Assembly: GCA_038861545.1 (NCBI GenBank)
Contig: JAWCCZ010000006.1
Span: 5,093 to 69,092, forward strand
Source: Thermofilaceae archaeon
GTDB taxonomy: Archaea; Thermoproteota; Thermoprotei; Thermofilales; Thermofilaceae
Length of the DNA: 64,000 bases
Direction: 5' to 3'
Shown: positions 15,420-39,430 of the stretch, piece by piece
Numbering within the stretch: position 1 is the stretch's first letter
Layout of the letters: every line of letters starts with the position of its first letter
Translations under genes and position numbers: made by a program
The notes under the pieces: generated by a model
What the model was told of the DNA's origin: nothing
Database searches by the model: none
Seen by the model: only the letters and a program-made list of their open reading frames with translations

Positions 15420-15611
15420 ATGGTTGGCGTGAAAAACTCATTAAATAATTTTCCGGTAAATTTAACGACTCAAACACCAGTTAGTAACGCAATTTGTCAA
15501 GATTTGTTGGCTTTCATTAAAGAATTGTATAGTTACAAGGTATAGAGTAACGGGCTACAGATACTGTTGAGACAGTGGGAAAGAGGGTGAAACTTTCAAG
15601 CTTATGAGTTT

Positions 15612-22116: not shown

Positions 22117-22168
22117 GGTCGTTCCACGGGCGCCCGGATCTAAGCTTTGCGCGTGTTCTAGTGTAAGC

Positions 22169-22882: not shown

Positions 22883-22930
22883 AACTGTCCCCGGTAACCC
22901 ATTTTTACCTCTTTACAGGTTTTATCTTTG

Positions 22931-23938: not shown

Positions 23939-24951
23939 GGAAGCTGAAGTTCGCAATTCTCTCATTCGCACACGTTCACGCATGGAGCTACGCTAGAGTA
24001 CTGAAAAGCCTGGAGGAAGCTGAACTCGTCGCAATCTATGATGACGATCCAGAAAGGCTAAAGAGAGCGGCGGAGACTTACAGGGTAAAGGATCTCTACA
24101 GCGACTACCAACGGCTCCTGAAGCGGGAAGATATAGATGCAGTAATTATTGCTTCTGAGAATGCTAAGCATGCTGAGTTAGCGATAGCCGCAGCGGAGGC
24201 TGGGAAACATATGATTGTCGAGAAACCACTGGCCACGACGCTTAAGGATGCGGAAAGAATGATTAGAGCAGCTGAGAAAGCAGGGGTGAAGCTGCAGCAG
24301 GCCTTCGTGATGAGGTACCACGACGTCACGGTTATGGTGAAGAATATAATAGAACAGGGTGCAGTGGGTAGAATCTTAGCTATAACGACGACTAACCACG
24401 GCAAGTTCCCGGATCTCTGGTTCGATGACCCCAAGCTTGCTGGTGGAGGGGCGGTAATGGATCATGTAGTCCATACCGCTGATCTAATACGCTGGTACAC
24501 AGGAAAGGAGGTTGATGAAGTGTACGCTGTCATCGGGAGGAATATCAGACCTCAGCTGAGGTCTGAAGATTGCGCGCTGATTTCACTGAAGTTCGAGAGC
24601 GGCGCGATAGGGAGCATTGACTGCAGCTGGTCGCGGCCAGATACATTCTACACATGGGGTGACGTGTTTCTCGCTATCCATGGAACTGATGGTTTCATCT
24701 TTGTAGACGCCTTCAGACCCTGCATTAATGTAGTAATCGAGGGTAAACCGCTTGCATGGCACTACTATGGTCCCGATGCCGACTACAACATGATTAGAGA
24801 CTTCGTTTATGCTGTTCAGGAAGATCGACCGCCGAGAGCAACAGGATACGACGGGTATAAAGCGCTCGAAGTTTCAATCGCAGCTTATGAATCAGCCCGC
24901 AAGGGTTTGCCGGTGAAACTACCTTTACAGAATAGCAAAGCGAGCGGCTAG
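23935..24951 (+). CDS. Gfo/Idh/MocA family oxidoreductase
   Basis: 338 aa with MIVEKPLAT. It overlaps the previous gene by 4 nt, so this is a likely two-subunit or co-expressed pair. Confidence 0.9.
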   Translation: MRKLKFAILSFAHVHAWSYARVLKSLEEAELVAIYDDDPERLKRAAETYRVKDLYSDYQRLLKREDIDAVIIASENAKHAELAIAAAEAGKHMIVEKPLATTLKDAERMIRAAEKAGVKLQQAFVMRYHDVTVMVKNIIEQGAVGRILAITTTNHGKFPDLWFDDPKLAGGGAVMDHVVHTADLIRWYTGKEVDEVYAVIGRNIRPQLRSEDCALISLKFESGAIGSIDCSWSRPDTFYTWGDVFLAIHGTDGFIFVDAFRPCINVVIEGKPLAWHYYGPDADYNMIRDFVYAVQEDRPPRATGYDGYKALEVSIAAYESARKGLPVKLPLQNSKASG

Positions 24952-25115
24952 ACATAGAAGATAAAGGCTGTCATAATGTTTACTACCTTCTACTTCGTTA
25001 TTAAAGTTGAGCTAGTGGCTTCTCTTTTATAAAACCAGGTCCTAAACGCCTCATACCAGAGATTACATTTTCTTTCCTCGGGGCTCTCATTATCCCTAGT
25101 TTAGCAGCTTGTATC

Positions 25116-25482
25116 CTAGGCCTTATTATCGTAGGAAGCTAGGGGTAGTTCCCCGCGCGCTGCTACCGCTAGAATTATTTTGTCGTTAAAGTGTGAAAGG
25201 GAAAGTTCTTTTTCGACAAGTGTGTTGAGCGCCTACTTTACATCATTTATCTCCTTCATAATAAGAAGGTTTTTCATCAGTCATGTATCCGAACACTTTC
25301 TCGTATACTATCCTAGTATCGACGAATAGGCCTTTTAGGAACTCTACATACTTAAAAACCACAATCATGGGGATAAGCCAGCGATTGAGCATATCTAGCA
25401 GGCTAACGGTGTTCCTGTGGTATAATGAGTCCTTGAAGGTATCGTAAATTAACATGATTGTATCGATTACAGCTTCATGCAA
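25116..25482 (-). pseudogene. frameshifted PIN-domain (VapC-like) toxin remnant
   Basis: The N-terminal fragment (25243..25482) starts (L)HEAVIDTIMLIY, the PIN signature vIDTsvli. A C-terminal PIN-like piece, ...FNDKIILAVAARGELPLASYDNKA*, is read in a different frame (25116..25232). The two frames are separated by stops. Confidence 0.6.
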
Positions 25483-25548
25483 GTGCTTCGCCTAACCCTT
25501 TAACTATTAACACTTTAATCTCATCTCGGGTGAGCATTCTACCAGTTG

Positions 25549-25702
25549 TTAGCTTCTTCCTATCTCTCTTGATTTTTCCATAATGATTCTCCCGCTCTCA
25601 TTTAGGTATACTTCCAAGTAATCTCCAACTTGAATACCAACGCTATCACGGACATCCTTTAGAAGTGTAACTTAATAACTTATAGTAACTTTAACGCTCC
25701 AT
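25549..25702 (-). pseudogene. AbrB/SpoVT-type (VapB-like) antitoxin remnant
   Basis: The reverse strand reads ..SVKVTISY*VTLLKDVRDSVGIQVGDYLEVYLNESGRIIMEKS.. . This is the AbrB swapped-hairpin motif interrupted by an in-frame TAA. The only ATG (25702) is in another frame. Confidence 0.55.
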
Positions 25703-25816
25703 TAGTATGAATTAACCTCTACTTTTTTTAGTTTTCTCGGTAATTTTTCTCTGAAGCGTAAACTGCACGCAAAACTAAATTCTAAGAGTACAAAAAGAGG
25801 TGCTCTTATCCTTAAA

Positions 25817-27073
25817 TTACCAATGGTCTATCAGCCATATATGCATCAGTTTAGGGGGAAACAATTCTTTAAGTAGGCGCAGGATCCTTTTAGCAGGCAC
25901 ATCAGCCTTCACGATAGAGTTCAGTAGGAGCTTCTCTGCGCTTGAACAACCAAAGAGGAATTTATTGAAAGTTTCCGGATCTAGGTCCACTACTGCACCC
26001 ACAGAGTTCCCGCCCTTTTCTGCTTCTCCCTCTTTCACTGATATAGTAACAGACTCACTACGGTACTTTAGTTTAAGTGTTAGCCCATCCAGAAAGGCAG
26101 TTTTACATGTAAATATGTTTTCAAGAACTGCCTTGAAGTTTAAAATTTCACACATGAATACTCCGCCGCCTCCCTGTGCGCGGAAACGACTGAATAATCG
26201 GGCGTAATCGGCTCCCGGGATTTTTGGGGCACGTATGTATCGCGCCCCCTCTTCAGATGCACGTTTCACGATATATGTGTAAAGTGCTTGAAGCGCATCG
26301 GTTCGCCCTGGTAAAGCTATTAGTTCTGCTATACCAAAGCCTTCGGGATCCCATGGTACTTTAGCTGCCACAGCGTAGCCAATTACTTCATCCCCCTCTT
26401 CCGCTACGGCAAAATTTCTTGGACTGCGCGGCAGGTAAAAGAAGCTATGGTATGCGGTACGTGCAAACATTTTCTCTCTGTACTCAGACTCAGATCTTAT
26501 AGGCCACCCGGTGTAGAGGCTACCCGAAGTCTCATACACTTTTCTTACATGTTCGACGTCACGCTCTTCTGCTTCCCTCACCTCGATCCAACGAACTTCT
26601 CGCATGTTTTCTTGAGCGTCCCAGATAGGGGCGATCCACCAACTGTCGAGACAGATATCAACATAACCTAATCTCCTATAGATCCTTTGTGGACTGCTTG
26701 CATAGCCTGTGAACAGAGCTGTAAGCGGGAATCCCTTTTGCTTGTAATCCTCCATCACATAGCTTAATAGTCTGGATGCGTAACCCTTACCTCTATACTC
26801 AGGATCTGTTGATACATTAGCTATTCCAGCTGTCTTCAAAATCCCAGCAGATGTACGCAGCCTTTTCTCGACTACTTGAACGTGAGAAATCGGTTTTCCA
26901 TCGATTTCGAGTAGATAAGCCCCTTCAAGCTTAAACCCCTCATTTAACTTAGCCAGTTCTAGCCATTTAGAGCTATCGAGCCCGTAACTGTTATATGTTC
27001 CGAAACACTTCCTAAGGAGATTAGCTATAGTTTCTTCATCACCAGGCCTGTAGGTTCTAATACTCTCTGTCAC
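25817..27073 (-). CDS. GNAT family N-acetyltransferase (Eis-like, with C-terminal SCP2-like region)
   Basis: 418 aa. GNAT motif A is ANVSTDPEYRGKGYASRLL. A second GNAT-like half and a C-terminal sterol-carrier-like tail follow. Confidence 0.75.
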   Translation of the reverse strand: MTESIRTYRPGDEETIANLLRKCFGTYNSYGLDSSKWLELAKLNEGFKLEGAYLLEIDGKPISHVQVVEKRLRTSAGILKTAGIANVSTDPEYRGKGYASRLLSYVMEDYKQKGFPLTALFTGYASSPQRIYRRLGYVDICLDSWWIAPIWDAQENMREVRWIEVREAEERDVEHVRKVYETSGSLYTGWPIRSESEYREKMFARTAYHSFFYLPRSPRNFAVAEEGDEVIGYAVAAKVPWDPEGFGIAELIALPGRTDALQALYTYIVKRASEEGARYIRAPKIPGADYARLFSRFRAQGGGGVFMCEILNFKAVLENIFTCKTAFLDGLTLKLKYRSESVTISVKEGEAEKGGNSVGAVVDLDPETFNKFLFGCSSAEKLLLNSIVKADVPAKRILRLLKELFPPKLMHIWLIDHW

Positions 27074-28263: not shown

Positions 28264-29754
28264 TTAACCCTCTTTTGCTTTACCTTTTTTTCTAAGTATT
28301 AAAATCGCCCCAGCCACTATCACTACGGCAGCCACTGCTATAGCTATCTGAGTAAAGGAAATTCCGCCTCCAGTTCCCGGTACCGTTATCTCGACTTGCG
28401 GTTTAAGACCAGCTGTTTCTAATGGTGGGATTACTGCGCCGGTGAACCAAAGCCCTTGATATTCTGGGTACCTGGGCCAGGAATTCACCTGTATAAGTAG
28501 TTCTTTATCACTTCTTAACTTATGTATTCCAGGTAATGTGAAGAGGTATGGAGCATCTGCTCTAACCTTTACTGTCATTGTATCATCAATTAAAACCGTA
28601 GCATCCTCTTTTGAGTAAAAGTATACTTCTAAACTTGCATTTGAAGGAAACTGTACAAGGATATCCTCGTTTGGTTTCAGTGTATAGAACATTGTTGATC
28701 GCGGGTAACCGCAGTACCAGCCTCCACCCATTCCTGCATTCTCAATCTCTATGCTTCCGTTATGCATAAACCAGATTGAAACTGGCTTTTCGCTGACTAA
28801 TGCTATAGCGTAGGCGTTTGGTCTAAGCATTATGCCTGAGCCGCCAGGAATGTTAAAGTCGTCAATCTTAGTACCGGTTTCTAGATCATAAAGCGTTACC
28901 TTTGTATTCTCTATAGACAGAACCTTAAACCCGTAATCTCTGACTTTATCCCATCCCCACTCTATTGCTTTGAAAGCCCTAGTAAGGTAGAATTTCCCTT
29001 GGAAGCCACCTTCAACTGAGGGGATCACGAAGCTTGTCGTCTCATAGGTTCCTATTCCAGGTATAGCCCCGGACATGACCATTATATTCCCAGTAGACTT
29101 GATTCTATAAGCTCTGAAAGGAGCAAGTGTAGTATATTTATATTCGTTAGCTTTAAGTTTTAAAGATGTTGTTTGTCCATCATCTCTTTCAATAGTTACC
29201 TCTGCAGGCTCGACGGCCAGTATTGTGTAGTCGGTGGCCGTCAGAGACCCCTGTAGAGCCACAAATACGAATTCCTTGCCCACATATATCCCCTCAACGC
29301 TGTAGTAAAAACTATGAACCGTTGGCGGTAAAATTGGAAGCGGGAACTTAGGGGTCTGGTTGTAGTTCACCAGCTGAACCGTAACAGGCTTACTTGCTAC
29401 GACTTTGAAGATAGTGTTGTTTTTAAGCAGCAAATACAATGGTTCTAAGCTTTTCAACGTAGCTTTTGCGATTAATTGGTTATACGTTAGATTATAGACC
29501 TCAACTTGTACTCCATCTTCTCCGGATACAATCGTTAAAAGCGATAAAGTGACTGGGCTGTTATATACAACCCAATCGTAAGGGGTCTGGCATGCAGGTT
29601 GTGACTGCCAATCCGCTGGCCTGTATTGCCATATTTTAGCCGGCACTTTACCGTAATAGGTATATACCGGCTGTCCATGGGAAATATAAGCGTATACGAA
29701 GAATATAGTTAAAAAAACCAAATAATAAGATGCAAAGTATCTTCTTTTTATCAT
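28264..29754 (-). CDS. beta-rich surface protein with N-terminal signal/anchor and C-terminal TM anchor
   Basis: 496 aa. The N-terminal hydrophobic segment is YYLVFLTIFFVYAYISHG. The C-terminal segment is ISFTQIAIAVAAVVIVAGAILIL followed by RKKGKAKEG. Four internal repeat signatures are FKVVASKPVTVQLV, YRIKSTGNIMVMSG, IALVSEKPVSIWFMH and HKLRSDKELLIQVNS. Confidence 0.6.
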   Translation of the reverse strand: MIKRRYFASYYLVFLTIFFVYAYISHGQPVYTYYGKVPAKIWQYRPADWQSQPACQTPYDWVVYNSPVTLSLLTIVSGEDGVQVEVYNLTYNQLIAKATLKSLEPLYLLLKNNTIFKVVASKPVTVQLVNYNQTPKFPLPILPPTVHSFYYSVEGIYVGKEFVFVALQGSLTATDYTILAVEPAEVTIERDDGQTTSLKLKANEYKYTTLAPFRAYRIKSTGNIMVMSGAIPGIGTYETTSFVIPSVEGGFQGKFYLTRAFKAIEWGWDKVRDYGFKVLSIENTKVTLYDLETGTKIDDFNIPGGSGIMLRPNAYAIALVSEKPVSIWFMHNGSIEIENAGMGGGWYCGYPRSTMFYTLKPNEDILVQFPSNASLEVYFYSKEDATVLIDDTMTVKVRADAPYLFTLPGIHKLRSDKELLIQVNSWPRYPEYQGLWFTGAVIPPLETAGLKPQVEITVPGTGGGISFTQIAIAVAAVVIVAGAILILRKKGKAKEG

Positions 29755-29839
29755 GGGAATTTTTACCCTAAGAGTTCTTTTTAAAGGTTATGGTTTTATT
29801 ACAACAAATCTTAAATACTTCGCTTTTTAATGAACCCTT

Positions 29840-31849
29840 ATGGGCACAGAAACGAAAAGTGAAGTAAAAACTGCATTAAAACCGTCTCTCTGGGCCGGTT
29901 TAGCAGTCTTTTCCCTGGTAATGAGCCTTATTGGAGTGCTTACTGCCCCCTTCGGTCCTAGCTGGATGTTCTCGATGGTTATCGGTACATTTACTGCACC
30001 TATCGTCGTTCTCTTCATATTCCTTTTGCTTTCAAGAGTTACCGGTATTTCAGCATCGCCGCAGACTTTAGCATTACTTTATGCCGCGGCTTCTATGTCC
30101 ATAGCCTTCTGCTACAGTATGATACCGTACGGTATAATACACAATGCGGCCGCCCTCCGGATGAACCAGTATAATTGGCATCCGACGAATTGGGCTGTTC
30201 CAAATTACTGGGTTTTCGGTCCAATAGTTTCTGATCCAGCGGAAATGACTCCAATTACTACGGGAGGCCCAGTCCCATTGGATAAATGGACACCATTCCT
30301 AACATGGTGGATCACATACACAATACTATGGCTACTATTCTTCACAGGCTGGATAGGGCTACTATATGATAGGTGGATAGAGGTAGAGAGGCTGCCTTAC
30401 CCTGCCTCATTAACTGGTACTATGCAGATCGAGCTAATATCCAGTAAAGGTAAAGACCCAAGAATCAAGTACTTTATGCTTGGTGTTTTACTCGGAGCGA
30501 TAACAATAATTCCAATCATAGCTACTTATCTAAACCCTGCGATCCCCGATATTTACGGCTGGACTAGAGAACCATTCTTACCATGGTTCTTAGGTACAAT
30601 GGACTTCTCCAGATCACCGCTTGGTGCCGCTATACCTGTGATAGCATTCTTACCTGTTAACCCAATGATCTATTCGCTATTCTACCTAATGCCGACGAAA
30701 ACCCTGTTTACGATCTGGGCATTCTCATTATTCGGCATAATGATACCGAGCCAAATTGCGTTTTACATGGGATACTACAGCGACTTACCAACAATGGCGA
30801 ACAGATTCCACGCATTCATGAACGGAGCACCATTCCGATGGAACGGATGGTGGATAGGCGTCTACTTCGGCTTATTCCTGATATGGTTTGCGCTGAACAT
30901 CAGGTACATGAGAGATATCTTTATGAGAGATGCTCCGGAGCGAGCGCTCCCCGGCAAGCTCGGTACTGTAATGATTATAGGTTCAACAGCAGCGCTTATC
31001 GCAATGCTTATCGTAGCCGGAGCCAACCCAATAGGGGCTCCCTTGATAGTTTTGACAATGTGGTTGCTGTTTATGTCCTCTGCAAGAGTTCTAGGTAATG
31101 CTAGCCTAGTTGGAACAGCTTGGGGCTTCCCGATAGATTGGACTCACCTTCCTAGCTTAGTTAAGTACCTTTACATACCGGATCCCGGCTACATTACAGC
31201 ACCAGATGGATCACAAGTTAGACCACCAGAAATGGTAGCAACTCTATGGCTAGCAAACAGATGGACCGGCGAACTAATGGCCGAGAATAATACTAACTTC
31301 GGTATGGCTTTTGCTATCCCGCTATGCTATAAGGTTGGCTTTGACACCAAAACTCACCCAAGAGATATTACGAAGGTAATTCTAACTTCAGGTATAATTT
31401 CGGCCGTGGTCGGTTACACGGTTGGTCTATGGTTCAGCTATGCCGCAGGTACAAATAACACTAGGATGGGGATGTTCGACGCTTGGTGGCACTGGGTATT
31501 TGGAGCTCCGTGGAGCAAAGTTGAAGAACAGTTTATAGCTGAGCCGTTATTACCTTACATAGCTGCTGGCTTCATACTGATACTTTTAATCAGCTTCCTC
31601 AACTTCCGCTTCGTCTGGTGGCCACTAGACCCCGTCGGCGTAGCGATGGCTTTCGGTGCTTCTGGAACTGGTTGGATAATACCGGCTTTCGTAGCATGGA
31701 TAGTGAAAAGGCTCATATACCGTATTGGCGGTGCAAAGCTTGATGAGAGTACAGTTACGCCGATAGTGGTAGGATTCCTTGTCGGCTACTGGGTAATGGT
31801 TTTCATCGGCGGAATAGGTTCAATGATACAGTTCTTCTTACCGAAGTAA
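29840..31849 (+). CDS. large polytopic membrane protein, unknown function (distant paralog of 36704..38593)
   Basis: 669 aa, Trp/Tyr-rich, with many hydrophobic helices. The motif DRWIEVERLPYPAS (ERLPYP at 30386-30403) and the C-terminal KRLIYRIGGAKLDE...GFLVGYWV are echoed in the 629-aa protein. Confidence 0.7.
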   Translation: MGTETKSEVKTALKPSLWAGLAVFSLVMSLIGVLTAPFGPSWMFSMVIGTFTAPIVVLFIFLLLSRVTGISASPQTLALLYAAASMSIAFCYSMIPYGIIHNAAALRMNQYNWHPTNWAVPNYWVFGPIVSDPAEMTPITTGGPVPLDKWTPFLTWWITYTILWLLFFTGWIGLLYDRWIEVERLPYPASLTGTMQIELISSKGKDPRIKYFMLGVLLGAITIIPIIATYLNPAIPDIYGWTREPFLPWFLGTMDFSRSPLGAAIPVIAFLPVNPMIYSLFYLMPTKTLFTIWAFSLFGIMIPSQIAFYMGYYSDLPTMANRFHAFMNGAPFRWNGWWIGVYFGLFLIWFALNIRYMRDIFMRDAPERALPGKLGTVMIIGSTAALIAMLIVAGANPIGAPLIVLTMWLLFMSSARVLGNASLVGTAWGFPIDWTHLPSLVKYLYIPDPGYITAPDGSQVRPPEMVATLWLANRWTGELMAENNTNFGMAFAIPLCYKVGFDTKTHPRDITKVILTSGIISAVVGYTVGLWFSYAAGTNNTRMGMFDAWWHWVFGAPWSKVEEQFIAEPLLPYIAAGFILILLISFLNFRFVWWPLDPVGVAMAFGASGTGWIIPAFVAWIVKRLIYRIGGAKLDESTVTPIVVGFLVGYWVMVFIGGIGSMIQFFLPK

Positions 31850-32038
31850 ACTAAAGTAAACTATCTATTTTTTATAAAGTTTCTAGTTCAGAAATAATTA
31901 AATTCTAACAATTTTAGTTTTTCTAAGACAAAGTGAAGAAAAATAATAATAATTTATATTATTGCTGAATTTTATTAACTTTTGATAGTCTATGATGAAA
32001 AGAAGTTTCTCTTCTTTTAAACATTTTATGAAGCAAGC

Positions 32039-32045
32039 TATATAA
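32039..32045 (+). promoter_or_regulatory. TATA-box-like element upstream of the giant gene
   Basis: TATATAA ends 30 nt upstream of the ATG at 32075, at the end of a 225-bp very AT-rich spacer. This is consistent with an archaeal promoter giving a very short leader. Confidence 0.35.
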
Positions 32046-32074
32046 GGAGGTAACCTACACCAAACCGATTAGAA

Positions 32075-35000
32075 ATGTCAATTCGAAAAGCTCCGAGTTT
32101 GCTGCTTATTTTCCTGCTAGTAGTGTCTACGCTAACGTTGCCGGCTTATCTAGTAGGTGCTCAACCAAGTAGTATTCCAATTTCCGAACTCGTCGGGCTG
32201 GTTAAACTCGATGAAATACTTCAACATACTAAGTATTTTTCTAATTTAGATTCGAGAGTCACAGGCTACGATGGTTTTTATCAAGCGGCTGAATATATCA
32301 AGGAATATTGGAGTGGTCTTGGGTTTACTGTCAGAGAAGAGCCTTTTGATGTTGCTATTCCTATAGTGAAGGATGCCAGTATATCCGTTGACGTACCTGG
32401 AGCGGGTTTGGTAAAATACTCTGCCTACCCTTTATGGCCAAATCACGTTAACCCTTGTCCATACGTTAGTCCGGTTTCGGGAGATAAACTGGTTTACGCT
32501 GGTAAAGGGGGGTTAGAAGACTTTGACGGAGTAGACGTAGAGGGGGCATTTGTTTTGGTCGAATTCAATAACAGATGGTACTGGAAGTACGCCGCTATGT
32601 TTAAGGCTAAAGGAGTAATTTTCATCGAGCCGGACGATACAAGCGTTACTGAAGCTCTGCAGAAGGTTCTTAGTGTACCTGTAAACTTCCCCAGACTTTT
32701 TGTAAGTAAAAATGTAGGCGCCGAGCTTAAAGAACTTTTAAAAAAGCATAGCGAGCTCAAAGTATGGGTCAACTCAGAGGTAGAATGGGAGAGAAGGAGA
32801 GTAGCCAATATTATAGCTACTATTGAAGGTACTAACCCCGATTTAAAGGACGAAGTGGCTGTCGTAGGAGCTTACTACGATTCCTGGTCTATAACACCTC
32901 AACTCTCCCCTGGAGCTACAGATGCAATCGGAATAAGCTTCCTTCTCGAGCTATCCCGCCTCCTGAAAGAACGCCCTGCGCGAAGGACTGTTTGGTTAGT
33001 GGCATTTGCTGGCCACTACCAAGCGCTAGCTGGGGCTAGAGAGTTCGTTGATAGTCATTTTGGCGAATTAGGGAGTAAAGTAAAAATGATGATAACGTTA
33101 GATCTTGCTAGTGATAGCGACGTTGTTGCAGCTTACGCTGCTGGAGCAATGTATGGCTATAACCGGCCTAGAGACATCCTGCCACAATACGATAGCTGGA
33201 TGAACAGCATCGTAAGCTTGGCTAGAAATATCGAAAATATAACTGGGGAGCCGGCACGCCTTATAGATGGTGTCCGCTGGACCTGGCCTCCATGGGCTGT
33301 CAGCTCGCCGCCTTTCGAGCCTTTTCTAAGGTACTTTGAAGCTGAGGTATTCACTAAAGCCTGCTATGGAGGTGGGCTTGCTTTCGTAACTACCAACGCG
33401 CTCCGGAAATACCAGTGGACATTCATGGATACCTTCGAGAAGTTACGCTTGGAAAATCTGCGTAGACAATTAATTGTTTTAGCTCCAGTGATTTATCATT
33501 CACTGGACATGGAAAGAATACCTTATTCGCTTTACCCAAGGAGAATAGGAGCCGTTGATCATGGACTGGTGTCGGTCACGCTGCAGCTCGGTAAGTATAA
33601 TAAAACTACTAACATGTTTGACGACTATGCTCACAAGGATGCTTTAATCTTTGTTTCAGTTAGCCCGATAATGAGTGGAGCAGCTGGAATTTTAGCAGTT
33701 GGTTTTCAGCCTGCCGCCGCCGTAGGTTCATCTCAGAGTATCACTGTCCAAGGTGCAACCGTAGGTTTATTTGCAGCTTCATCCCCCGTTAGTGGAACTA
33801 CAGTCACAGCCGCATCAATAAATACACCGGTAGGGTTCACGTTAATCCTCAAACCGGATGAAACTGGCAGGGTTGAGCTGAAAAGTATAATGCCTTTAAC
33901 CGCCGTTGATGCTCAAGCCTACGTAGTTGACTCAAGGACAGGCGAGGTGCTGAGCGCGACCGACACGGGTCCTTTCGGCACCGGTGTGTTTAGGCTTGGC
34001 GGGCTCTTCGGTGCAGCTGGCGCAATCGCGGCACCGTTGCTTTCACCGATGATGGGCGGACTCGGCTACTTAGCGGAAGCAGGCGCCTATGCGAGAGCTT
34101 TCACAGTACAGGTGCCCCGCGGCCACAGGTATATTCCACTGTTTAATTGCTCTTCAATCGTCTTCATAGGCTTTTATGATCCGCTTTTGTTGTACGGTCC
34201 CCAAGGTTTATCTTTTGAGCCACTCAGCTTTATCTCACACAGCTATCTTGTTTGGAGAGATGTTTTAACAACCTGGCCCGAGGCTATGGCTTTTGTAGAA
34301 CCAGAAGTACCTGTTGAAGTATTGATTAGAAGTCAAGGAAGAGTTATAGCAGTTCTCAATAATGCTAGCGAAGCGAATCCGAATGGCCAGGGATATACTC
34401 TGCCTTGGGGTAAGACACTGGTGCTCACAGCGGTTGATGCTGTATTGAACACGTACCGGTTAGCTGAATACAGAGGGGGTTTCCTAGAGAGTAGGATGAC
34501 AAGCAGTCCAAGGATGCTTCTTTACTTGGATACTATGAGAAAATACTTAGTTGCAGCTAAAAGTGCTCTAGATAAAGGCAGTAAAAGTATTTTTGTGAAA
34601 TATGTTTTAGCGGCTTGGCAATTTGTTATCGGGTCCTACGATTCCACGATTTCCCTGCTTTTTGATGTTTCTCAAACTGCGGTCTTTTTCTTCTTCCTCT
34701 CGATAGCCTTCGCGCTTTTAGCCAGCAGGTTCATGGGTAGAATGGTTTCCGGAAAGAAGCAGACCCTTTATACTTTAGTTGTGTTGATAACCGCTAACGC
34801 GGCAGTAGCTTTTGTACACCCCGGTTACACGATTTCAAATAATGTTTGGATGCTTGTAAGCGGTGTCTCTGTCATCCTCTTCTTGGCACTCGTCCTATAC
34901 ACGGTTAGCGACGAGTTCAACACAGCTATATCCGAACTGAGTACGTCCATACTTGGATTCCATAGAGCTGATGTGAGAAGGGGATCTATACTTCCCTCGG

Positions 35001-36697
35001 CAATCTCCATGGGTATAGAGAATCTTAAGAAACGTCCACTGAGAACCGCATTAACGCTAACCACAATAACAATCACGGTTATGGCCCTCGTGCTCTTTAC
35101 CACAGTTAACGTGTCACTTTTCTTCTATAATAGGAATCTCGGCCCAGCTCCCTACACAGGAGTTTTGGTAAGGCGTCCATTCCAGCAGCTCTACATGCCT
35201 ATGCATGAAATATATCTGAAAATATTACCAGGCATGCTAAGTAACAGTAACGCGTTATTTGAGGCACATCCTAGGGCATGGCTATACCCTGCTGGGCAGA
35301 GTTTATTCCTAACTTGGGGGCCCAACGGGTCGGGTATAAGGTGTATGTTGGCGTTAACGCCGGAAGAATCCAAGTCTCTTGAACGCGCTCTAGATGGTTA
35401 TTACTTTACTCCTGCTTCTACTTACTCGGTTATTATGACAAAATCGCTGGCCGAGAGGCTCAGCGCAATACTCGGCTATCCAGTCGGTCTAGGAAGTGAA
35501 ATAAACATTTACGGTATCAACATGACTGTAGTAGGGCTACTTGATAAACAGATAGCGTCTGCGGTTCTCGCCAGGGATTTAGATGGATCACCTATAACGC
35601 CGCCTGATCCGATAGCCACTGGTTTAGCTGCTACTTACTCACCCTTGGATTTAGATACAGTGATTATTATCCCATATAGCTTCGCACTTCAGTACCTAAA
35701 CGCTCAACCGAACGTTATGAGAGTAAGTACAGAATCCCGAATCGACAAAGAATATATGCTGGCTAAAGCATACGAAATAGCCACGTTCCTACCCTTTGAT
35801 ATCTCGTACGGCGTTAAGGATGATACAGCGCAACTTATAGCTAAAAGAGATATCTATGCTATGGGCGGCTTTGAGAACGTCGCAGTTCCCCTAGTTCTTT
35901 CGGCGTTAACGATGCTTATAACGATGCTGGGCGCGGTATACGAAAGACGTAGGGAAATACACACACTTGCAACCGTTGGCGCAGCACCTGGGCACATAGA
36001 TATCATATTTGTTATGGAGGGAGCCACGCTAGCGTTCTTAGGTGCCTACCTCGGCTACATAGTGGGCGCTAGCGCATTATTCGCTGTGTGGAACCTGCGC
36101 GCTTTCCCACCGGGCTTAGTGCCCAATGTCTCATCTGGAGTGGTAATTGTAGTTATAGGGGTTATAATGATTACCGTGATTCTCTCGACTCTCTATCCAG
36201 CATCTAGAGCTTCGAGGTTAGCTACTCCATCATTGTTAAGGTCTTGGGCTATTGAGACTAAGCCTAGAGCTGGTAGCTGGCAGGTGAGGATGCCGTTTAT
36301 GGCTACACGTGACGAAGCTATAGGGTTGCTCGTGTTTATCAGTGAGTACCTCGAAGCTTACAGCTCTGAACGGGAAAGGTCCAGGGTTTTCATGCTTTTA
36401 TCTCCACCTCAGCTAGGGAAAGATGATAAAGGTTACACGTTGAGTGCAAGGCTTCACATGGCGCCTTTCGACGCAGGAATAATACAGGATATGAATATAT
36501 TCGCTAGAATCACCCAAGCGGATAGGTACCTGTTTGATGTCGTGCTAAGGAGGCAGCAGGGTCCTGAATCCTTATGGGTAACTACAAGTAGAGCTCTCAT
36601 AGGCGAGCTTCGTAAGCAGTTCCTTGCTTGGAGGGCGTTGCCTCCAGCCGAAAAGGAAAAGTATGTCAAGAAGGGAGCGACCGCGGGACTGAGGTGA
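32075..36697 (+). CDS. giant envelope protein: signal peptide + PA domain + degenerate M28 peptidase-like domain + Gly/Ala-rich region + TM bundle + FtsX/MacB-type permease + C-terminal cytoplasmic domain
   Basis: 1540 aa. The signal peptide is SLLLIFLLVVSTLTLPAYLVGAQP. The PA-like segment is GDKLVYAGKGG..VEGAFVLVEF..AKGVIFI. The M28-like core is ANIIATIEGT..VAVVGAYYDSW..SPGATDAIG..WLVAFAGHYQALAGAREF. FtsX TM1 is IENLKKRPLRTALTLTTITITVMALV (about 35010-35100). The FtsX core is GAVYERRREIHTLATVGAAPGHIDIIFVMEGATLAFLGAYLGYIVG (about 35930-36070). Confidence 0.8.
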   Translation: MSIRKAPSLLLIFLLVVSTLTLPAYLVGAQPSSIPISELVGLVKLDEILQHTKYFSNLDSRVTGYDGFYQAAEYIKEYWSGLGFTVREEPFDVAIPIVKDASISVDVPGAGLVKYSAYPLWPNHVNPCPYVSPVSGDKLVYAGKGGLEDFDGVDVEGAFVLVEFNNRWYWKYAAMFKAKGVIFIEPDDTSVTEALQKVLSVPVNFPRLFVSKNVGAELKELLKKHSELKVWVNSEVEWERRRVANIIATIEGTNPDLKDEVAVVGAYYDSWSITPQLSPGATDAIGISFLLELSRLLKERPARRTVWLVAFAGHYQALAGAREFVDSHFGELGSKVKMMITLDLASDSDVVAAYAAGAMYGYNRPRDILPQYDSWMNSIVSLARNIENITGEPARLIDGVRWTWPPWAVSSPPFEPFLRYFEAEVFTKACYGGGLAFVTTNALRKYQWTFMDTFEKLRLENLRRQLIVLAPVIYHSLDMERIPYSLYPRRIGAVDHGLVSVTLQLGKYNKTTNMFDDYAHKDALIFVSVSPIMSGAAGILAVGFQPAAAVGSSQSITVQGATVGLFAASSPVSGTTVTAASINTPVGFTLILKPDETGRVELKSIMPLTAVDAQAYVVDSRTGEVLSATDTGPFGTGVFRLGGLFGAAGAIAAPLLSPMMGGLGYLAEAGAYARAFTVQVPRGHRYIPLFNCSSIVFIGFYDPLLLYGPQGLSFEPLSFISHSYLVWRDVLTTWPEAMAFVEPEVPVEVLIRSQGRVIAVLNNASEANPNGQGYTLPWGKTLVLTAVDAVLNTYRLAEYRGGFLESRMTSSPRMLLYLDTMRKYLVAAKSALDKGSKSIFVKYVLAAWQFVIGSYDSTISLLFDVSQTAVFFFFLSIAFALLASRFMGRMVSGKKQTLYTLVVLITANAAVAFVHPGYTISNNVWMLVSGVSVILFLALVLYTVSDEFNTAISELSTSILGFHRADVRRGSILPSAISMGIENLKKRPLRTALTLTTITITVMALVLFTTVNVSLFFYNRNLGPAPYTGVLVRRPFQQLYMPMHEIYLKILPGMLSNSNALFEAHPRAWLYPAGQSLFLTWGPNGSGIRCMLALTPEESKSLERALDGYYFTPASTYSVIMTKSLAERLSAILGYPVGLGSEINIYGINMTVVGLLDKQIASAVLARDLDGSPITPPDPIATGLAATYSPLDLDTVIIIPYSFALQYLNAQPNVMRVSTESRIDKEYMLAKAYEIATFLPFDISYGVKDDTAQLIAKRDIYAMGGFENVAVPLVLSALTMLITMLGAVYERRREIHTLATVGAAPGHIDIIFVMEGATLAFLGAYLGYIVGASALFAVWNLRAFPPGLVPNVSSGVVIVVIGVIMITVILSTLYPASRASRLATPSLLRSWAIETKPRAGSWQVRMPFMATRDEAIGLLVFISEYLEAYSSERERSRVFMLLSPPQLGKDDKGYTLSARLHMAPFDAGIIQDMNIFARITQADRYLFDVVLRRQQGPESLWVTTSRALIGELRKQFLAWRALPPAEKEKYVKKGATAGLR

Positions 36698-36703
36698 AAT
36701 GGA

Positions 36704-38593
36704 ATGTCTTTAAGTATTAAGGAAGGCGGAAAGATGCTCTCCTGGCGTGTTATCCTAATATACTTGTTTATAGTAGTTGTTTTACACCCCGTTTTGATTT
36801 ACAATTGGCTTACAAGCGGTCTCTGGGGCGTAGCAGGATTAAACGCTTGGGCAATTATACTGATCTTAGTCTGGTTAACAGCGAGAACTGGTTCGCCGTT
36901 AACGAAGGGCGAGATCTTTGCATTAAGGATGATAGACTCAGCAGGCTTGATGTACACTGGCTACTATTTCGCTTACATGCTTCGAAACATGTACTTCGCT
37001 AACTCCGAGATAGCTAAATTGTTTGGCCTCCAAGAGGAGGTTCCACCGTTCTTCGCACCTATCAAAGAGGACTTCATTCGAGTATCTATATTTAGAACGT
37101 TTTTCGATAAAGCATGGCTTCAGCCGATATTCTCTACCATCATAATACCTTTTGCTCTAGTCGTAACTGCGAACTACATACTCGGGCTAATATCCTATAG
37201 CATCTACGTCAGGGAGGAGCGGCTAGCGTTTCCATGGGCATCGTGGGACGCTAGAATGATGATCGCGTTCGGAGAGCGAGAGCCGACTAGGATTCGAACA
37301 ATCTCCTTGGCAATAATCGTCGGCGCGCTGTACGGTTTCATGACCAGCGGTTTATCGACTATCTTCAGATATCCGCTCGTCCCCCGTATGATGGTTGACT
37401 TCACGAGCTTGGTGGAAAATGTGATGCCTGGAGCAGCTTTCGCTTTCACAACGGACTTCATGAGCTACGTAGTCGGTTTTATTCTTCCGGTCAGGTATAC
37501 TGTTCTTCAACTCGCTGCCTCCGCAGCAATATCGGTGCTCGGTAACTACTATGTAACAATTAACGATTTATGGCCAGCTGAGGCTAAATGGCAACCGGGT
37601 AGAGGTATACTCTGGAACTTTAACATGTCAACCGTTTACTTCTGGAACAGCTTTACGCTGGGCTGGGGTCTCGCAGCAGCTCTGCTCCCATTAATAATCA
37701 GATATAAAGTAGTAGCCCGTGCATTCTCTGGTATCACTAAAGGACTTTCGGGTAGTACCGGTATCAAGTGGCTGGACTCTAAGTACCTTCTAGCCTCTTA
37801 CTTGCTGATAACATTGCTGTCAATAGCATTTGTGGAGTCGCTGGCACCAGGTTTTCCAATACATATACTCCTCCTATTCACTGTGGGAATTTCGCTACTT
37901 ATCACTCTGCTACAGACACATGCAGCCGGTATTCTAACGACAGTGAATATTCCCTATCTTCGTGAAGCTTTAATATACTTCAGCGGTTATAGGGCATTAA
38001 GTATCTGGTTTGTCTCCTCCGATGCAATGCTATTCACAGGAGGCTCGGGAGTTGCGCAGCAACTATTACAAGCTACAATGGTTGGAGTAGATGTAAGAGA
38101 GTACACTAAGGCTTACTTCATGCTGTCGCTCTTGGGGCTGGTAGGTAGCTTCGCCTTCGTCTCGCTTTTCTGGTATCTCTTCCCCATACCCGGACATGCT
38201 TATCCGTATACTCTATCAGGATGGCCAGTTGAATCGATGAACTTCTGGCGCTGGCAGTCCTGGCTTTGGACAGGTTACCTTTTCCGGAGAAACTGGATGA
38301 TAATGGGCTTCGGGCTCTCAACGGCAATGTACTTTATCTCTGACTTCCTATTGCATGATTTCTCTCTGCCTGTAGCGTTCATGAGCGGCATGCTGCTACC
38401 AATACATACGGCTTTAGCATACTTTGCTGGTTCACTAATCTCGAATTTCATAGCAAAGTATGCAGGGGAGCAATGGTGGAATGAGAATAGAGGGTACATA
38501 GCTATGGGTTTATGGCTCGGTGATAGTATAGTCTCGGCTTTCCTAATGTTAATGCAGCTGCTCAGTAGGTCCATCTGGTTACTGCCGTATTAA
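36704..38593 (+). CDS. large polytopic membrane protein, unknown function (distant paralog of 29840..31849)
   Basis: 629 aa. It starts 6 nt after the giant gene's stop. The motif YVREERLAFPWAS (about 37205-37243) and the C-terminal FIAKYAGEQWW..GLWLGDSIV parallel the 669-aa protein. Confidence 0.7.
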   Translation: MSLSIKEGGKMLSWRVILIYLFIVVVLHPVLIYNWLTSGLWGVAGLNAWAIILILVWLTARTGSPLTKGEIFALRMIDSAGLMYTGYYFAYMLRNMYFANSEIAKLFGLQEEVPPFFAPIKEDFIRVSIFRTFFDKAWLQPIFSTIIIPFALVVTANYILGLISYSIYVREERLAFPWASWDARMMIAFGEREPTRIRTISLAIIVGALYGFMTSGLSTIFRYPLVPRMMVDFTSLVENVMPGAAFAFTTDFMSYVVGFILPVRYTVLQLAASAAISVLGNYYVTINDLWPAEAKWQPGRGILWNFNMSTVYFWNSFTLGWGLAAALLPLIIRYKVVARAFSGITKGLSGSTGIKWLDSKYLLASYLLITLLSIAFVESLAPGFPIHILLLFTVGISLLITLLQTHAAGILTTVNIPYLREALIYFSGYRALSIWFVSSDAMLFTGGSGVAQQLLQATMVGVDVREYTKAYFMLSLLGLVGSFAFVSLFWYLFPIPGHAYPYTLSGWPVESMNFWRWQSWLWTGYLFRRNWMIMGFGLSTAMYFISDFLLHDFSLPVAFMSGMLLPIHTALAYFAGSLISNFIAKYAGEQWWNENRGYIAMGLWLGDSIVSAFLMLMQLLSRSIWLLPY

Positions 38594-38620: not shown

Positions 38621-39430
38621 TTATTCTGAAGAACGTTTAGCTACTGCTAACGTGGAACCAGTTACTAAAAGTGCTACTCCAGTAACTGAAAACATGGACA
38701 CGATTAGCGATTTAACGATCTCCCTCCTATCGGGTCGCAGGGCTCCAACAAAGAACAAAGCTACTTCTTGTGAGAGAGTCGTTAATACTGCAACTCCTAT
38801 AGTTACACATCCGACTAGTAGAAGAACAGCTACCAGTTCAGACTTAGGCGTAACTCCCTCAAGACATTCCTTGATTATATCCTGAGGTACAAGATTGGGA
38901 ATAGACTTGGCTAAAGCCTTTAAAACTGGTGGAACAACAAGTAACTGGAAGGGTAGCATAGTCGAGAACCACCAGATGGTTAACCCAACGCTAAGCCCAG
39001 GTAAAAGCTCAATCGGCACGACACCTATAGTTGCTTGGTATAGAATGTAGAGAACCGCACATAAGGCGTTCCCGACACCTAGCGCTAACGTCGACGCTGC
39101 TATGAATCTCGGCCATCGAAACCTTCCCTGAAGCAATTTTCCGAATAGGTAAAAGGCTAAGAAGTTTGAAGGTACTGCAGCCACTAAGCTCGGAATGTAT
39201 AATGTAGCATGCTTTATTGAATCCGCGATCAACGTACCAATGGCTGCGCTCAACCCTCCGACAACCGGCCCTAAAAGCAATGCAAAAATGCTTGGAATAA
39301 TTACCGCTGGCCTAAATTGACCCAAACCCCAAGGGCTCTGGATATAGGCTGTTGCGTATGAGCCCACGAAGTACAGAGCAGCTCCTAGGCTCGTAAACGC
39401 GACGAGTTTTGAAGGGGTTCGCGTTTTCAC
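38621..39430 (-). CDS. ECF-transporter S-component-like membrane protein (solitary)
   Basis: 269 aa, about 6-7 TM. FRPAVIIPSIFALLLGPVVGGLSAAIGTLIADSIKH resembles the substrate-capture S-component/QueT-like signature. It is downstream of a nucleoside phosphorylase gene. Confidence 0.5.
   Translation of the reverse strand: MKTRTPSKLVAFTSLGAALYFVGSYATAYIQSPWGLGQFRPAVIIPSIFALLLGPVVGGLSAAIGTLIADSIKHATLYIPSLVAAVPSNFLAFYLFGKLLQGRFRWPRFIAASTLALGVGNALCAVLYILYQATIGVVPIELLPGLSVGLTIWWFSTMLPFQLLVVPPVLKALAKSIPNLVPQDIIKECLEGVTPKSELVAVLLLVGCVTIGVAVLTTLSQEVALFFVGALRPDRREIVKSLIVSMFSVTGVALLVTGSTLAVAKRSSE

Follow-up and report, generated by a model that had tools for sequence, protein, structure and literature searches.

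The window, the 64,000-nucleotide stretch of Thermofilaceae DNA analysed here, encodes a 1540-aa protein (called BIG below) that joins an M28-like ectodomain to an FtsX-type permease, and directly downstream of it lies the gene for a 629-aa protein that models with the fold of OPT/Yellow-Stripe transporters. These two genes are the conserved core of a four-gene block (Table 1), and their previously undescribed pairing is probably a new kind of nutrient-uptake machine. A sequence-only reading of this DNA had known of no characterised system of such composition, and literature searches brought up none. The same reading had the coordinates, strands and lengths of all four ORFs exactly right, as well as the 6 nt between the BIG stop codon and the 629-aa ATG, and the fusion that it saw in the 1540-aa ORF is real and conserved. 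It is no frameshift artefact, since the identical protein is found on five independent contigs and more than 300 full-length homologs (1450–1600 aa, with the BIG architecture) occur in Thermoproteota and Armatimonadota. The proposal that all four genes form one conserved unit did not survive comparison, as the 496-aa gene is present in just 17 of 81 loci and the 669-type gene, variable in position and strand, in 51 of 66 archaeal loci.

Table 1. Features of the block at 28264-38593, in window positions (res, residues)
Feature	Position	Strand	Basis or content
496-aa beta-rich surface protein, divergent	28264..29754	-	ORF, hydropathy
669-type OPT-superfamily paralog (DUF6785+DUF6784), 669 aa	29840..31849	+	ORF, Pfam, hhalign
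AT-rich intergenic spacer, 225 nt	31850..32074	+	Sequence
BIG, whole protein, 1540 aa	32075..36697	+	ORF; signal/anchor and PA/M28-like ectodomain, then a beta-sandwich region, a helical stalk plus three further TMs, a 4-TM module of MacB/FtsX type that includes a periplasmic core domain (PCD), and a cytoplasmic alpha/beta domain at the C-terminus
BIG N-terminal signal peptide or membrane anchor, res 1-28	32075..32158	+	Hydrophobic res 9-27, KD 2.47
BIG PA/M28-like ectodomain, about res 45-480	32207..33514	+	Pfam M28, YwaD/2EK8 alignment, column frequencies, invariant columns
BIG beta-rich ectodomain region, about res 499-785	33569..34429	+	AF2 secondary structure/pLDDT, hydropathy
BIG helical stalk and three extra TMs, about res 786-960	34430..34954	+	AF2 helices, hydropathy
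BIG type-VII ABC permease module, res 972-1385	34988..36229	+	Pfam MacB_PCD and FtsX; Foldseek E 1e-9 to 1e-5, probability 1.0
BIG C-terminal cytoplasmic alpha/beta domain, res about 1401-1540	36275..36694	+	AF2 secondary structure, weak Foldseek, invariant columns
Shine-Dalgarno-like GAGGTGA over BIG stop codon	36691..36697	+	Sequence; 6 nt ahead of 629-aa ATG
629-type OPT-fold transporter, core component 2, 629 aa	36704..38593	+	ORF, AF2, Foldseek to HvYS1, linkage, co-divergence

In 58 of 69 loci from archaea and bacteria, BIG is followed directly by a 629-type gene in the same orientation, and in most of them the gap is -55 to +25 nt. A directly adjacent 629-type gene is missing for about 15% of BIG genes, and one 629-type gene has no BIG directly upstream. 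In the window, the Shine-Dalgarno-like motif lies across the BIG stop codon and thus suggests that the two genes are translationally coupled. The two families also diverge together, with distance matrices that correlate at r=0.954 (permutation maximum 0.15), and six pairs from one MAG that are mutually about 30% identical still correlate (r=0.84). At least seven BIG loci with highly divergent paralogous pairs are found in one MAG. Nutrient-uptake systems whose specificities differ typically show paralog expansion, and the expansion of BIG/OPT pairs would fit such a role. Hence the earlier idea of an ectodomain coupled to a large membrane partner holds as far as tight, non-random linkage goes, but the partners appear to be OPT-fold secondary transporters, which point to solute uptake instead of the proposed processing of S-layer or surface proteins.

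The assignment of the 629-aa protein as a distant OPT relative comes from its AlphaFold2 (AF2) model (pLDDT 88, pTM 0.88), whose sole significant fold matches in the PDB are to barley Yellow Stripe 1 (HvYS1; 7wsr/7wst, E 8e-10, TM 0.63–0.68). Like the OPT/Yellow-Stripe-like transporters (TC 2.A.67; PF03169), it is all-helical, in a family size range of about 620–690 aa, and its model superposes on HvYS1. Sequence similarity is marginal: Pfam OPT is matched by 4 of 35 homologs (best 1.5e-8), and PF03169 has no match in the 629- or 669-aa protein of the window. A profile of the family finds just 592 representatives among 1.84 billion proteins, and unlike the OPT/Yellow-Stripe-like transporters its members, always standalone proteins, are coupled to an FtsX-type gene. 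The 669-aa protein scores above the gathering thresholds for DUF6785 and DUF6784 (44.3 and 33.6 bits). The two polytopic proteins are not unrelated: alignment of their families by hhalign (99.8%, E 2e-28, 598 columns) makes them distant paralogs in one superfamily. Every characterised OPT member is an importer coupled to cations (PMC3061005), and we therefore propose that the 629-type protein works in the direction of uptake.

Pfam bears out the M28 (residues 245–354, E 1e-13) and FtsX (1273–1382, E 1e-11) parts of BIG and gives a weak MacB_PCD match under the gathering score (991–1159), but no PA match was reached for the window protein; partial NCBIfam matches are to LolC/E and FtsX. The best sequence matches in the PDB, covering residues 51–349, are two PA-containing aminopeptidases, B. 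subtilis YwaD (6hc6) and the Aneurinibacillus enzyme (2ek8), and BIG aligns with them both in the PA-like insert and at the motif positions HxD, D, EE and D. D269, D283 and D343 are retained, whereas Y267, H314 and Y315 stand in place of the Zn-ligand His, the catalytic Glu and the Zn-ligand Glu. Across 20 diverse homologs, the catalytic Glu is replaced by His in 19 and the Zn-ligand Glu position is aromatic, while the first Zn-ligand His is retained in six; invariant columns show that the domain around these positions is strongly conserved. Because metal and catalytic residues are replaced, this domain does look like a binding or receptor module and not a canonical peptidase, much as the first reading had it. 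Similar inactive M28-like folds, with or without a PA insert, serve in the transferrin receptor, nicastrin and nicalin, where membrane-anchored proteins recognise a ligand or substrate beside a polytopic machine; unlike BIG, these proteins come from eukaryotes, cross the membrane once and carry no ABC-type permease.

The AF2 model of BIG residues 341–1540 (pLDDT 84) matches Spr0695, LolC/E, MacB, YbbP, YtrF, HrtB, BceB and FtsX in Foldseek. With the type VII ABC systems (MacB, LolCDE, FtsEX, Spr0694-0695, YbbAP, YtrEF, HrtBA and BceAB; Foldseek probability 1.0) BIG shares a four-TM FtsX module with the PCD between TM1 and TM2 and the coupling-helix motif that meets the NBD. The order is amphipathic helix, TM1, PCD (1010–1264), TM2, coupling helix (ERRREI, 1290–1295), TM3 and TM4. 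Archaeal and bacterial homologs alike keep the ERxREI motif of the coupling helix, with almost no variation at E1290, R1291, E1294 and I1295. What sets BIG apart from those systems is an N-terminal extracellular addition of about 850 residues (PA/M28-like and beta domains), three further TMs, a conserved cytoplasmic domain at the C-terminus and, almost always, an OPT-fold neighbour. The beta-rich region contains two Gly/Ala-rich hydrophobic loops of low model confidence (524–542 and 638–656). The extra TMs (about 866–887, 894–914 and 924–946) precede the FtsX module, and together with the stalk (model helices H446-466, H472-493, H497-547, H554-574 and H584-620; add 340 for protein numbering) they may be where BIG touches the OPT-like protein. 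The C-terminal domain, with invariant W1501, R1513, Q1515 and W1519, gives weak helix-grip-like matches to 3nqn and the C-terminal domains of SxtT/GxtA.

The explanation that we tentatively favour is a complex for uptake, with the OPT-fold protein as carrier and BIG as an ATP-driven module for substrate capture; the physical complex, its transport direction, its energisation in archaea and its substrate are what we infer. The 629-aa protein would be the route by which a small organic nutrient crosses the membrane, and BIG, beside it, would capture or release the substrate at the outer membrane face, its ectodomain changing shape with the ATPase cycle in the cytoplasm as in type VII systems. 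In this archaeon, the genes for the ATPase and probably for a 200-aa PCD-less FtsX, the heterodimer partner of BIG, would lie elsewhere and their products be common to the paralogous BIG/OPT pairs, the 669-aa DUF6785 paralog might be a second carrier, and the 496-aa protein could be an optional surface component. Counting against this model, we know of no type VII ABC system that works with a secondary carrier and, if the cargo is sugar, of no OPT member that carries sugars.

A second explanation, possible but rather doubtful, is that the system acquires peptides, the ectodomain binding or, with a non-canonical site, trimming peptide N-termini on the outside of the cell and the OPT-fold carriers importing the oligopeptides that result. 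M28 and PA are peptidase or peptide-binding modules, and a minority of BIG homologs keep the first Zn-ligand His noted above. In bacterial BIG loci a pair of M16 peptidase genes lies immediately upstream, and the operon includes a gene for a PqqD-like peptide-binding protein. Oligopeptides are the cargo of characterised OPT members, and fusions to peptidase domains are known in fungal OPTs (PMC3061005), so that family precedent points to oligopeptides. Against this stand the replaced catalytic and Zn-ligand Glu residues and the archaeal neighbourhoods, which are heterogeneous outside the core pair. GH10 and GH106 flank one locus with BIG, 629- and 669-type genes; other BIG neighbourhoods hold CBM4_9, PfkB and GH88, or AnmK, PfkB and KDPG aldolase, or AP_endonuc_2, PfkB, UxuA and GH130; and likely co-operonic archaeal genes include Heparinase II/III, GH53, GH130, GH38 and TrmB. 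No peptidase family is among the 25 most frequent in the 48 likely co-operonic archaeal neighbours or the 101 nearest neighbours, where CAZymes and sugar enzymes are present (counted without a background control), and in the window genes for sugar-type Gfo/Idh/MocA oxidoreductases and TIM barrels lie on either side of the block. This context speaks for the use of carbohydrates no less than for that of peptides and points to glycosides, oligosaccharides or glycoconjugates, which for this window we lean slightly towards over oligopeptides.

The first reading had found neither a soluble enzyme nor a regulator nor an ABC ATPase in the block, and this is true of 28264-38593. The lack of a linked ABC ATPase extends to archaeal loci but not to bacterial operons. 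Seven bacterial loci encode BIG, the OPT-like protein, a 320-aa protein, the PqqD-like protein, a small FtsX (200 aa, without a periplasmic core domain, unlike type VII subunits) and a LolD/MJ0796-type ATPase, which resembles the heterodimer logic of LolC/LolE. Unrelated systems aside, such as an amino-acid importer (13812-14567) and an ECF module (56120-57759) whose ABC ATPases lie elsewhere in the window, neither ATPase nor small FtsX is found in the window, and almost all archaeal loci likewise have neither of them within 10 kb. Since the bacterial operons carry both proteins and BIG keeps the motif that couples to an NBD, the ATPase for archaeal BIG is likely encoded elsewhere. The unlinked small FtsX is highly conserved (62–96% identity, >1200 clusters), and in many metagenomic loci it lies beside an ABC ATPase. 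Group II ECF transporters and the MsiK-type ATPases of sugar ABC importers, protein families different from the BIG/OPT pair, also combine many paralogous specificity components per genome with one unlinked module; given the many BIG/OPT paralogs and the single conserved small FtsX, a shared energising module would therefore fit. Alternatively, archaeal BIG may have lost its ABC partner and become a static receptor or scaffold for the carrier, with the C-terminal domain in place of the NBD. The lack of a linked ATPase, the orphan state of the closest archaeal small FtsX genes and a conserved 140-aa C-terminal domain that MacB, LolC and FtsX do not have all speak for this, but we consider it unlikely: the coupling helix is nearly invariant, bacterial members with the same C-terminal domain keep the operon ATPase, and more distant small-FtsX relatives adjoin ATPases.

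To our knowledge, the characterised type VII systems (FtsEX-hydrolases, LolCDE, MacB, BceAB and HrtBA) all act on extracytoplasmic or outer-leaflet substrates, and the fold of BIG matches theirs. It could thus be a mechanotransducer of envelope biogenesis or remodelling, like FtsEX or LolCDE, that processes, anchors or releases surface proteins or the S-layer, with the polytopic proteins as exporters or scaffolds and the 496-aa protein as client; a surface-anchored beta-rich gene does adjoin in 17 loci, followed on the same strand by a small FtsX within two archaeal BIG clusters (L009 and L097). This seems improbable, as at least seven highly divergent paralogous pairs in one genome would be unusual for a housekeeping envelope role, the hosts have different envelopes (S-layer archaea versus Armatimonadota), the 496-aa gene is missing from 64 of 81 loci, the neighbours are catabolic and not of cell-surface biosynthesis, and OPT-family proteins are importers (PMC3061005).

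The block is probably not one operon, because the spacer between the 669-aa gene and BIG holds, past the 669-aa stop codon, a T6 run (31868-31874) and, about 33 nt upstream of the BIG ATG, a TATA-like CTATATAA (32038-32045), by the usual archaeal layout a putative terminator and promoter. These elements and the mixed neighbourhoods would suit a purely syntenic or coincidental adjacency of independent genes, which is nonetheless very unlikely for the core pair, whose overlapping or near-abutting order is kept in two domains of life and in paralogs about 30% identical with matching distance matrices. The 669-type gene, in none of 15 bacterial loci, is a frequent archaea-only accessory, probably with its own transcription unit. 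The 496-aa protein is an optional accessory; hydropathy confirms its N-terminal hydrophobic segment (residues 7–25) and its C-terminal TM (469–487) with a basic tail (RKKGKAKEG). Its family is never found in bacterial loci, forms three tandem copies in some loci, and in 4 of 20 members matches Pfam IgGFc_binding (6.8e-10).

Comparison of the loci that carry BIG, the 1540-aa M28-like::FtsX fusion protein, distinguishes a conserved core pair of genes from a more variable surrounding. The four open reading frames that a sequence-only reading of this stretch had grouped as an envelope gene cluster were all found exactly where it had placed them (see the table), but they are not one conserved block. 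Specifically, the family of the 496-aa surface protein is present in only 17 of the 81 loci, sometimes as three tandem copies, with a weak assignment to the beta-rich IgGFc_binding domain in 4 of 20 members. Likewise, the family of the 669-aa membrane protein (669-type) is confined to archaea (51 of 66 archaeal loci and 0 of 15 bacterial loci), where it lies upstream or downstream of BIG and on either strand. The gene family of the 629-aa protein (629-type), by contrast with this variable placement, lies directly 3′ of BIG and on the same strand in 58 of the 69 loci in which BIG is followed by at least 1.5 kb of sequence, with gaps mostly between -55 and +25 nt. Furthermore, the pairwise distances among BIG proteins track those among the adjacent 629-type proteins (r=0.954, against a permutation maximum of 0.15), and six pairs from one genome, about 30% identical to each other, still give r=0.84; the pairs have duplicated and diverged as units. 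At L177, a fetched homologous locus, the 629-type gene is preceded by a partial ORF that does not represent the C-terminal end of BIG.

Coordinates of the genes, domains and sites discussed (window positions unless preceded by a locus handle, L plus number, for a fetched homologous locus)
Feature	Location	Remarks
496-aa surface protein	28264-29754(-)	
669-aa protein	29840-31849(+)	DUF6785 + DUF6784
Spacer between 669-aa gene and BIG		225 nt, AT-rich; T-run and TATA-like box
BIG	32075-36697(+)	1540 aa
BIG Gly/Ala-rich hydrophobic loops	33644-33700 (res 524-542); 33986-34042 (res 638-656)	in predicted extracellular beta region
BIG C-terminal cytoplasmic domain	36275-36694 (res 1401-1540, ~140 aa)	conserved; beta-alpha-beta6-alpha2 layout
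SD-like GAGGTGA	overlaps BIG stop	6 nt ahead of 629-aa ATG
629-aa protein	36704-38593(+)	OPT fold
ECF S-component-like gene	38621-39430(-)	
ECF energising module and QueT-like gene	56120-58520(-)	
URO-D/Gfo/GNAT recurrence	21022-27073; L177:2492-6217; L005 syntenic region	
~1000-aa BIG-like paralogs	L011:18776-22117, L016:20185-23229, L018:16404-19598, L048:8156-11305, L080:8162-11557, others	adjoin BIG/OPT pairs
Small FtsX	L009:5455-6063(-); also L085-L090, L097-L176	200 aa, four TMs, no periplasmic domain
Bacterial ~320-aa and PqqD-like genes	L038:16607-18002; also L035, L039, L051, L055, L058, L059	between OPT-like gene and small FtsX/ATPase
Split BIG and 629-type genes	L025:9989-14508, 14671-16627	
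Segment without match to window 29342-30101	L001:1-763	contig end, GCA_038840215.1

A protein search returned 324 BIG homologs, almost all of 1450–1600 aa and with the same M28 plus FtsX architecture, from Thermofilaceae, Bathyarchaeia, Baldrarchaeia, other Thermoproteota and Armatimonadota. The identical protein occurs on five independent contigs (the window belongs to a Thermofilaceae MAG), and with more than 300 full-length homologs in a conserved family, the concern of the sequence-only reading that the ORF might be a frameshift or fusion artefact falls away. A genome scan yielded 224 confirmed BIG loci, 80 of which were fetched. Many paralogs occur together in several MAGs, at least seven of them in the Bathyarchaeia MAG JAWCEH01. 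Literature searches combining FtsX, M28 and archaea returned nothing relevant.

The Pfam scan, the check proposed along with that reading, found both Peptidase_M28 and FtsX in BIG and MacB_PCD weakly; the 496-aa and 629-aa proteins have no Pfam match. In BIG, the FtsX domain (PF02687, residues 1273–1382) scores 45.2 bits against a cut-off of 25.5, MacB_PCD (PF12704, residues 991–1159) reaches 22.3 bits, below its cut-off of 27, and the NCBIfam matches, of LolC/E and FtsX type, are partial only. The AF2 model, which spans residues 341–1540 with a pLDDT of 84, contains a helix, an alpha/beta domain (residues 1010–1264) and three further helices, the TM1-core domain-TM2-4 topology of these permeases, and Foldseek relates the module with probability 1.0 to Spr0695, LolC/E, MacB, YbbP, YtrF, HrtB, BceB and FtsX. 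Thus, BIG has both the fold and the HMM signature of FtsX/MacB permeases, without a linked ATPase. An ERxREI motif between TM2 and TM3 (ERRREI, residues 1290–1295) is nearly invariant among 20 diverse homologs; at residues 1292–1300 the model has a short helix, a candidate coupling helix for docking of the nucleotide-binding domain. When the model is completed with hydropathy, BIG runs from an N-terminal anchor through the PA/M28-like domain to a beta-rich region with two low-confidence hydrophobic loops, and on through a helical stalk with three extra TMs and a type VII ABC permease module of canonical build to a cytoplasmic alpha/beta domain at the C-terminus. The two loops, of very low pLDDT and poor conservation, could insert into the membrane or a substrate or could simply be disordered linkers. 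The C-terminal domain, which is absent from the characterised MacB, LolC and FtsX proteins, gives weak Foldseek matches to helix-grip/SRPBCC-like folds (3nqn and the C-terminal domain of SxtT). About ten archaeal loci carry an extra BIG-like paralog of ~1000 aa, which has a CarboxypepD_reg domain in place of PA/M28 and the extra TMs, FtsX module and C-terminal domain found in BIG; these are possible alternative heterodimer partners.

The ectodomain of BIG is homologous to M28 peptidases but lacks their canonical catalytic site. Homology is evident from Pfam (PF04389, residues 245–354, 51.8 bits against a cut-off of 21.3) and from phmmer matches to the PA-bearing aminopeptidases YwaD and 2EK8; the alignment to such enzymes covers the insert at residues 139–238. 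The PA domain itself (PF02225) has no Pfam match in the window protein and is recorded for ~10 of 120 homologs. The site was tallied by aligning BIG to YwaD and counting residues in 20 diverse homologs, and the co-catalytic zinc-ligand set (His, Asp, Glu, Asp/Glu, His) is incomplete: the first ligand His is replaced by Tyr267 (Y in 13 homologs, H in 6, F in 1), the ligand Glu by Y315 (Y, W or F in 18 of 20), and the general-base Glu, first of the EE motif, by His314 (His in 19 of 20). D269, D283 and D343 are kept, and the fifth ligand falls outside the confidently aligned positions. Many residues around this degenerate site are invariant; therefore, the domain is under selection, and as something other than a canonical di-zinc aminopeptidase. 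BIG would be another case in which the M28/PA peptidase fold has been re-used as a non-catalytic receptor.

The two polytopic partners are related in a way that plain sequence comparison misses. Between the 669-aa and the 629-aa proteins BLASTP gives no significant hit, but iterated searches of the ORFs from all loci arrive at the same set from either starting point, and hhalign aligns the two families with 99.8% probability over 598 columns; it is only to such iterated and profile methods that they are visible as distant paralogs. The 629-aa model (pLDDT 88, pTM 0.88) has only two significant matches in the PDB, 7wsr and 7wst, both of barley Yellow Stripe 1 (HvYS1) of the OPT/YSL family (E 8e-10, probability 1.0, TM 0.63–0.68); every other match is at E 0.03 or worse, with TM of ~0.1. 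The family profile finds nothing among PDB sequences, so fold comparison was needed for this link. Similarly, the OPT HMM (PF03169) matches neither window protein and only 4 of 35 629-type homologs (best 1.5e-8). With only 592 representatives found by its profile among 1.84 billion proteins, the 629-type forms a small and highly diverged branch of the OPT superfamily. The 669-aa protein is a genuine member of DUF6785 (PF20581, 33.6 bits, cut-off 25) and DUF6784 (PF20580, 44.3 bits, cut-off 26.4), neither of which has a Pfam match in its remote paralog of 629 aa, and its profile alignment with the 629-type would extend the OPT fold to it. To our knowledge, prokaryotic OPT proteins are essentially uncharacterised and neither DUF has a characterised member; literature searches on the two DUFs gave nothing relevant. 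Those eukaryotic OPT members that have been characterised import oligopeptides or metal chelates in a cation-coupled manner, and in fungi there are OPTs with fused peptidase domains (PMC3061005).

The window cluster contains no cognate ATPase of the MacB/LolD/FtsE type, and an HMM search, following a motif search, found none within 10 kb of the archaeal BIG loci except in unrelated systems. The only ABC ATPases of the 64-kb window are those of an ECF module and of the operon for an amino-acid importer, and they were rejected as partners of BIG on that ground. At seven bacterial loci, the OPT-like gene is followed by genes for a conserved ~320-aa protein with repeated CxxC-like motifs and no Pfam match, a PqqD-like protein of 138 aa (RRE-type), a 200-aa FtsX protein that lacks the periplasmic domain (small FtsX), and an ABC ATPase whose best PDB relatives are MJ0796, Spr0694, MacB-NBD and LolD; at some of these loci, two M16 peptidases are encoded upstream as well. 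Small FtsX is also encoded within two archaeal BIG clusters (L009 and L097), directly after the 496-aa homolog. Its family is unusually conserved (>1273 clusters, 62–96% identity); hot-spring Bathyarchaeia carry it as an orphan, just 3′ of glycoside hydrolase genes, and in more distant metagenomic relatives it usually lies beside one or two LolD-like ABC ATPases.

Type VII ABC systems (MacB, LolCDE, FtsEX, BceAB, HrtBA) work on substrates outside the membrane and are not known to carry solutes across it themselves; OPT proteins act as carriers. That BIG is so tightly paired with an OPT-fold protein, and diverges together with it, suggests a division of labour, in which BIG would capture a substrate and hand it over, powered from the cytoplasm, and the OPT-fold protein would carry it inward. 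In archaea, the ATPase and small FtsX would be encoded elsewhere and shared by paralogous BIG/OPT pairs. We hesitate to go further, and offer only as a tentative and rather doubtful proposal that this is an uptake class not recognised before, a hybrid in which a receptor-bearing type VII ABC mechanotransducer actively loads an OPT-fold carrier and draws on one small-FtsX/LolD-type ATPase module common to many paralogous pairs, serving glycan or glycoconjugate uptake in Bathyarchaeia, Thermofilaceae and Armatimonadota as a counterpart of polysaccharide-utilisation (SusCD-like) or binding-protein-dependent systems.

The nearest rival is a peptide-specific version of the same machine, to which the M16 and PqqD-like genes of the bacterial loci and the precedents of the M28 and OPT families point. 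Beyond the core pair, the neighbourhoods of BIG are heterogeneous. The window block is flanked by genes for Gfo/Idh/MocA oxidoreductases, xylose-isomerase-like TIM barrels, and GNAT, URO-D-like, PNP/UDP phosphorylase and ECF S-component-like proteins. Elsewhere, GH106 and GH10 stand on either side of one BIG-629-669 locus, another archaeal locus has CBM4_9, PfkB, GH88 and a B12-radical SAM protein, and at an Armatimonadetes locus the immediate upstream neighbour is AnmK, with PfkB/KDPG aldolase on the downstream side. In raw counts of the 25 most frequent families per batch, the 101 nearest archaeal neighbours include AP_endonuc_2 (7), PfkB (3), UxuA (3) and GH130 (2), and a set of 48 likely co-operonic neighbours includes URO-D-like proteins (5), methyltransferases, heparinase II/III-like proteins (2), GH53 (2), GH130, GH38 and TrmB, with peptidase families absent from the top 25 of the latter; as these counts have no genome-wide background, the lean towards carbohydrates is descriptive rather than statistical. 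For the window, we lean slightly towards glycosides or glycoconjugates.

A second rival is an envelope-processing device, as the sequence-only reading had envisaged. The type VII architecture is in keeping with it. No gene for a coiled-coil hydrolase or activator partner of the FtsEX type (EnvC, PcsB, CwlO, RipC) was seen in the 81 loci. The interpretation given in the sequence-only reading is partly supported and sharpened, its observation of the genes standing as made. A third rival, an ATPase-independent receptor-carrier complex, would fit the archaeal loci with no linked ATPase. From the retained ERxREI motif and the bacterial operons that encode an ATPase with small FtsX, we infer that BIG still works with a LolD-type ATPase, probably as a heterodimer with small FtsX. 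Coincidental adjacency is effectively excluded for the core pair.

The components all come from known superfamilies; what is new is that they are obligately combined, together with the receptor-like M28 domain and its degenerate site, the additional TMs, the C-terminal domain and the apparently unlinked energiser. If the uptake reading is true, the obligate pairing of a type VII ABC protein with an OPT-fold protein would be a new coupling of ATP-driven extracytoplasmic work to secondary transport, and it would open a first functional approach to the OPT-like proteins of prokaryotes, DUF6785 and DUF6784 among them. Bathyarchaeia, Thermofilaceae and Armatimonadota are abundant and largely uncultured groups that break down organic matter in sediments and hot springs; hence the system, which is expanded by paralogs in the first and found in the other two, may be a major unannotated carbon-uptake route.

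Several smaller observations bear on individual loci. URO-D-like, Gfo/Idh/MocA and ~420–445-aa GNAT (Acetyltransf_9, Eis-like) genes recur beside BIG/OPT-like loci of different lineages; the URO-D-like cluster is present in 14 of 81 loci, and a further 629-type locus repeats the trio of the window. The ECF S-component-like gene of the window is convergent to the 629-aa gene, and an ECF energising module (two ATPases and a CbiQ-type T component) lies with a QueT-like gene 17 kb away. At a locus from one Bathyarchaeota MAG (L025), BIG is broken up over three ORFs and the 629-type gene over two, probably through frameshift or assembly errors of that record rather than as real pseudogenes. Finally, a contig that is 99.9% identical to the window over 16.6 kb (L001) differs in its terminal 763 nt, which hold an IU_nuc_hydro fragment and give the 669-aa homolog a different N-terminus, probably as a contig-end chimera or a strain-level rearrangement.
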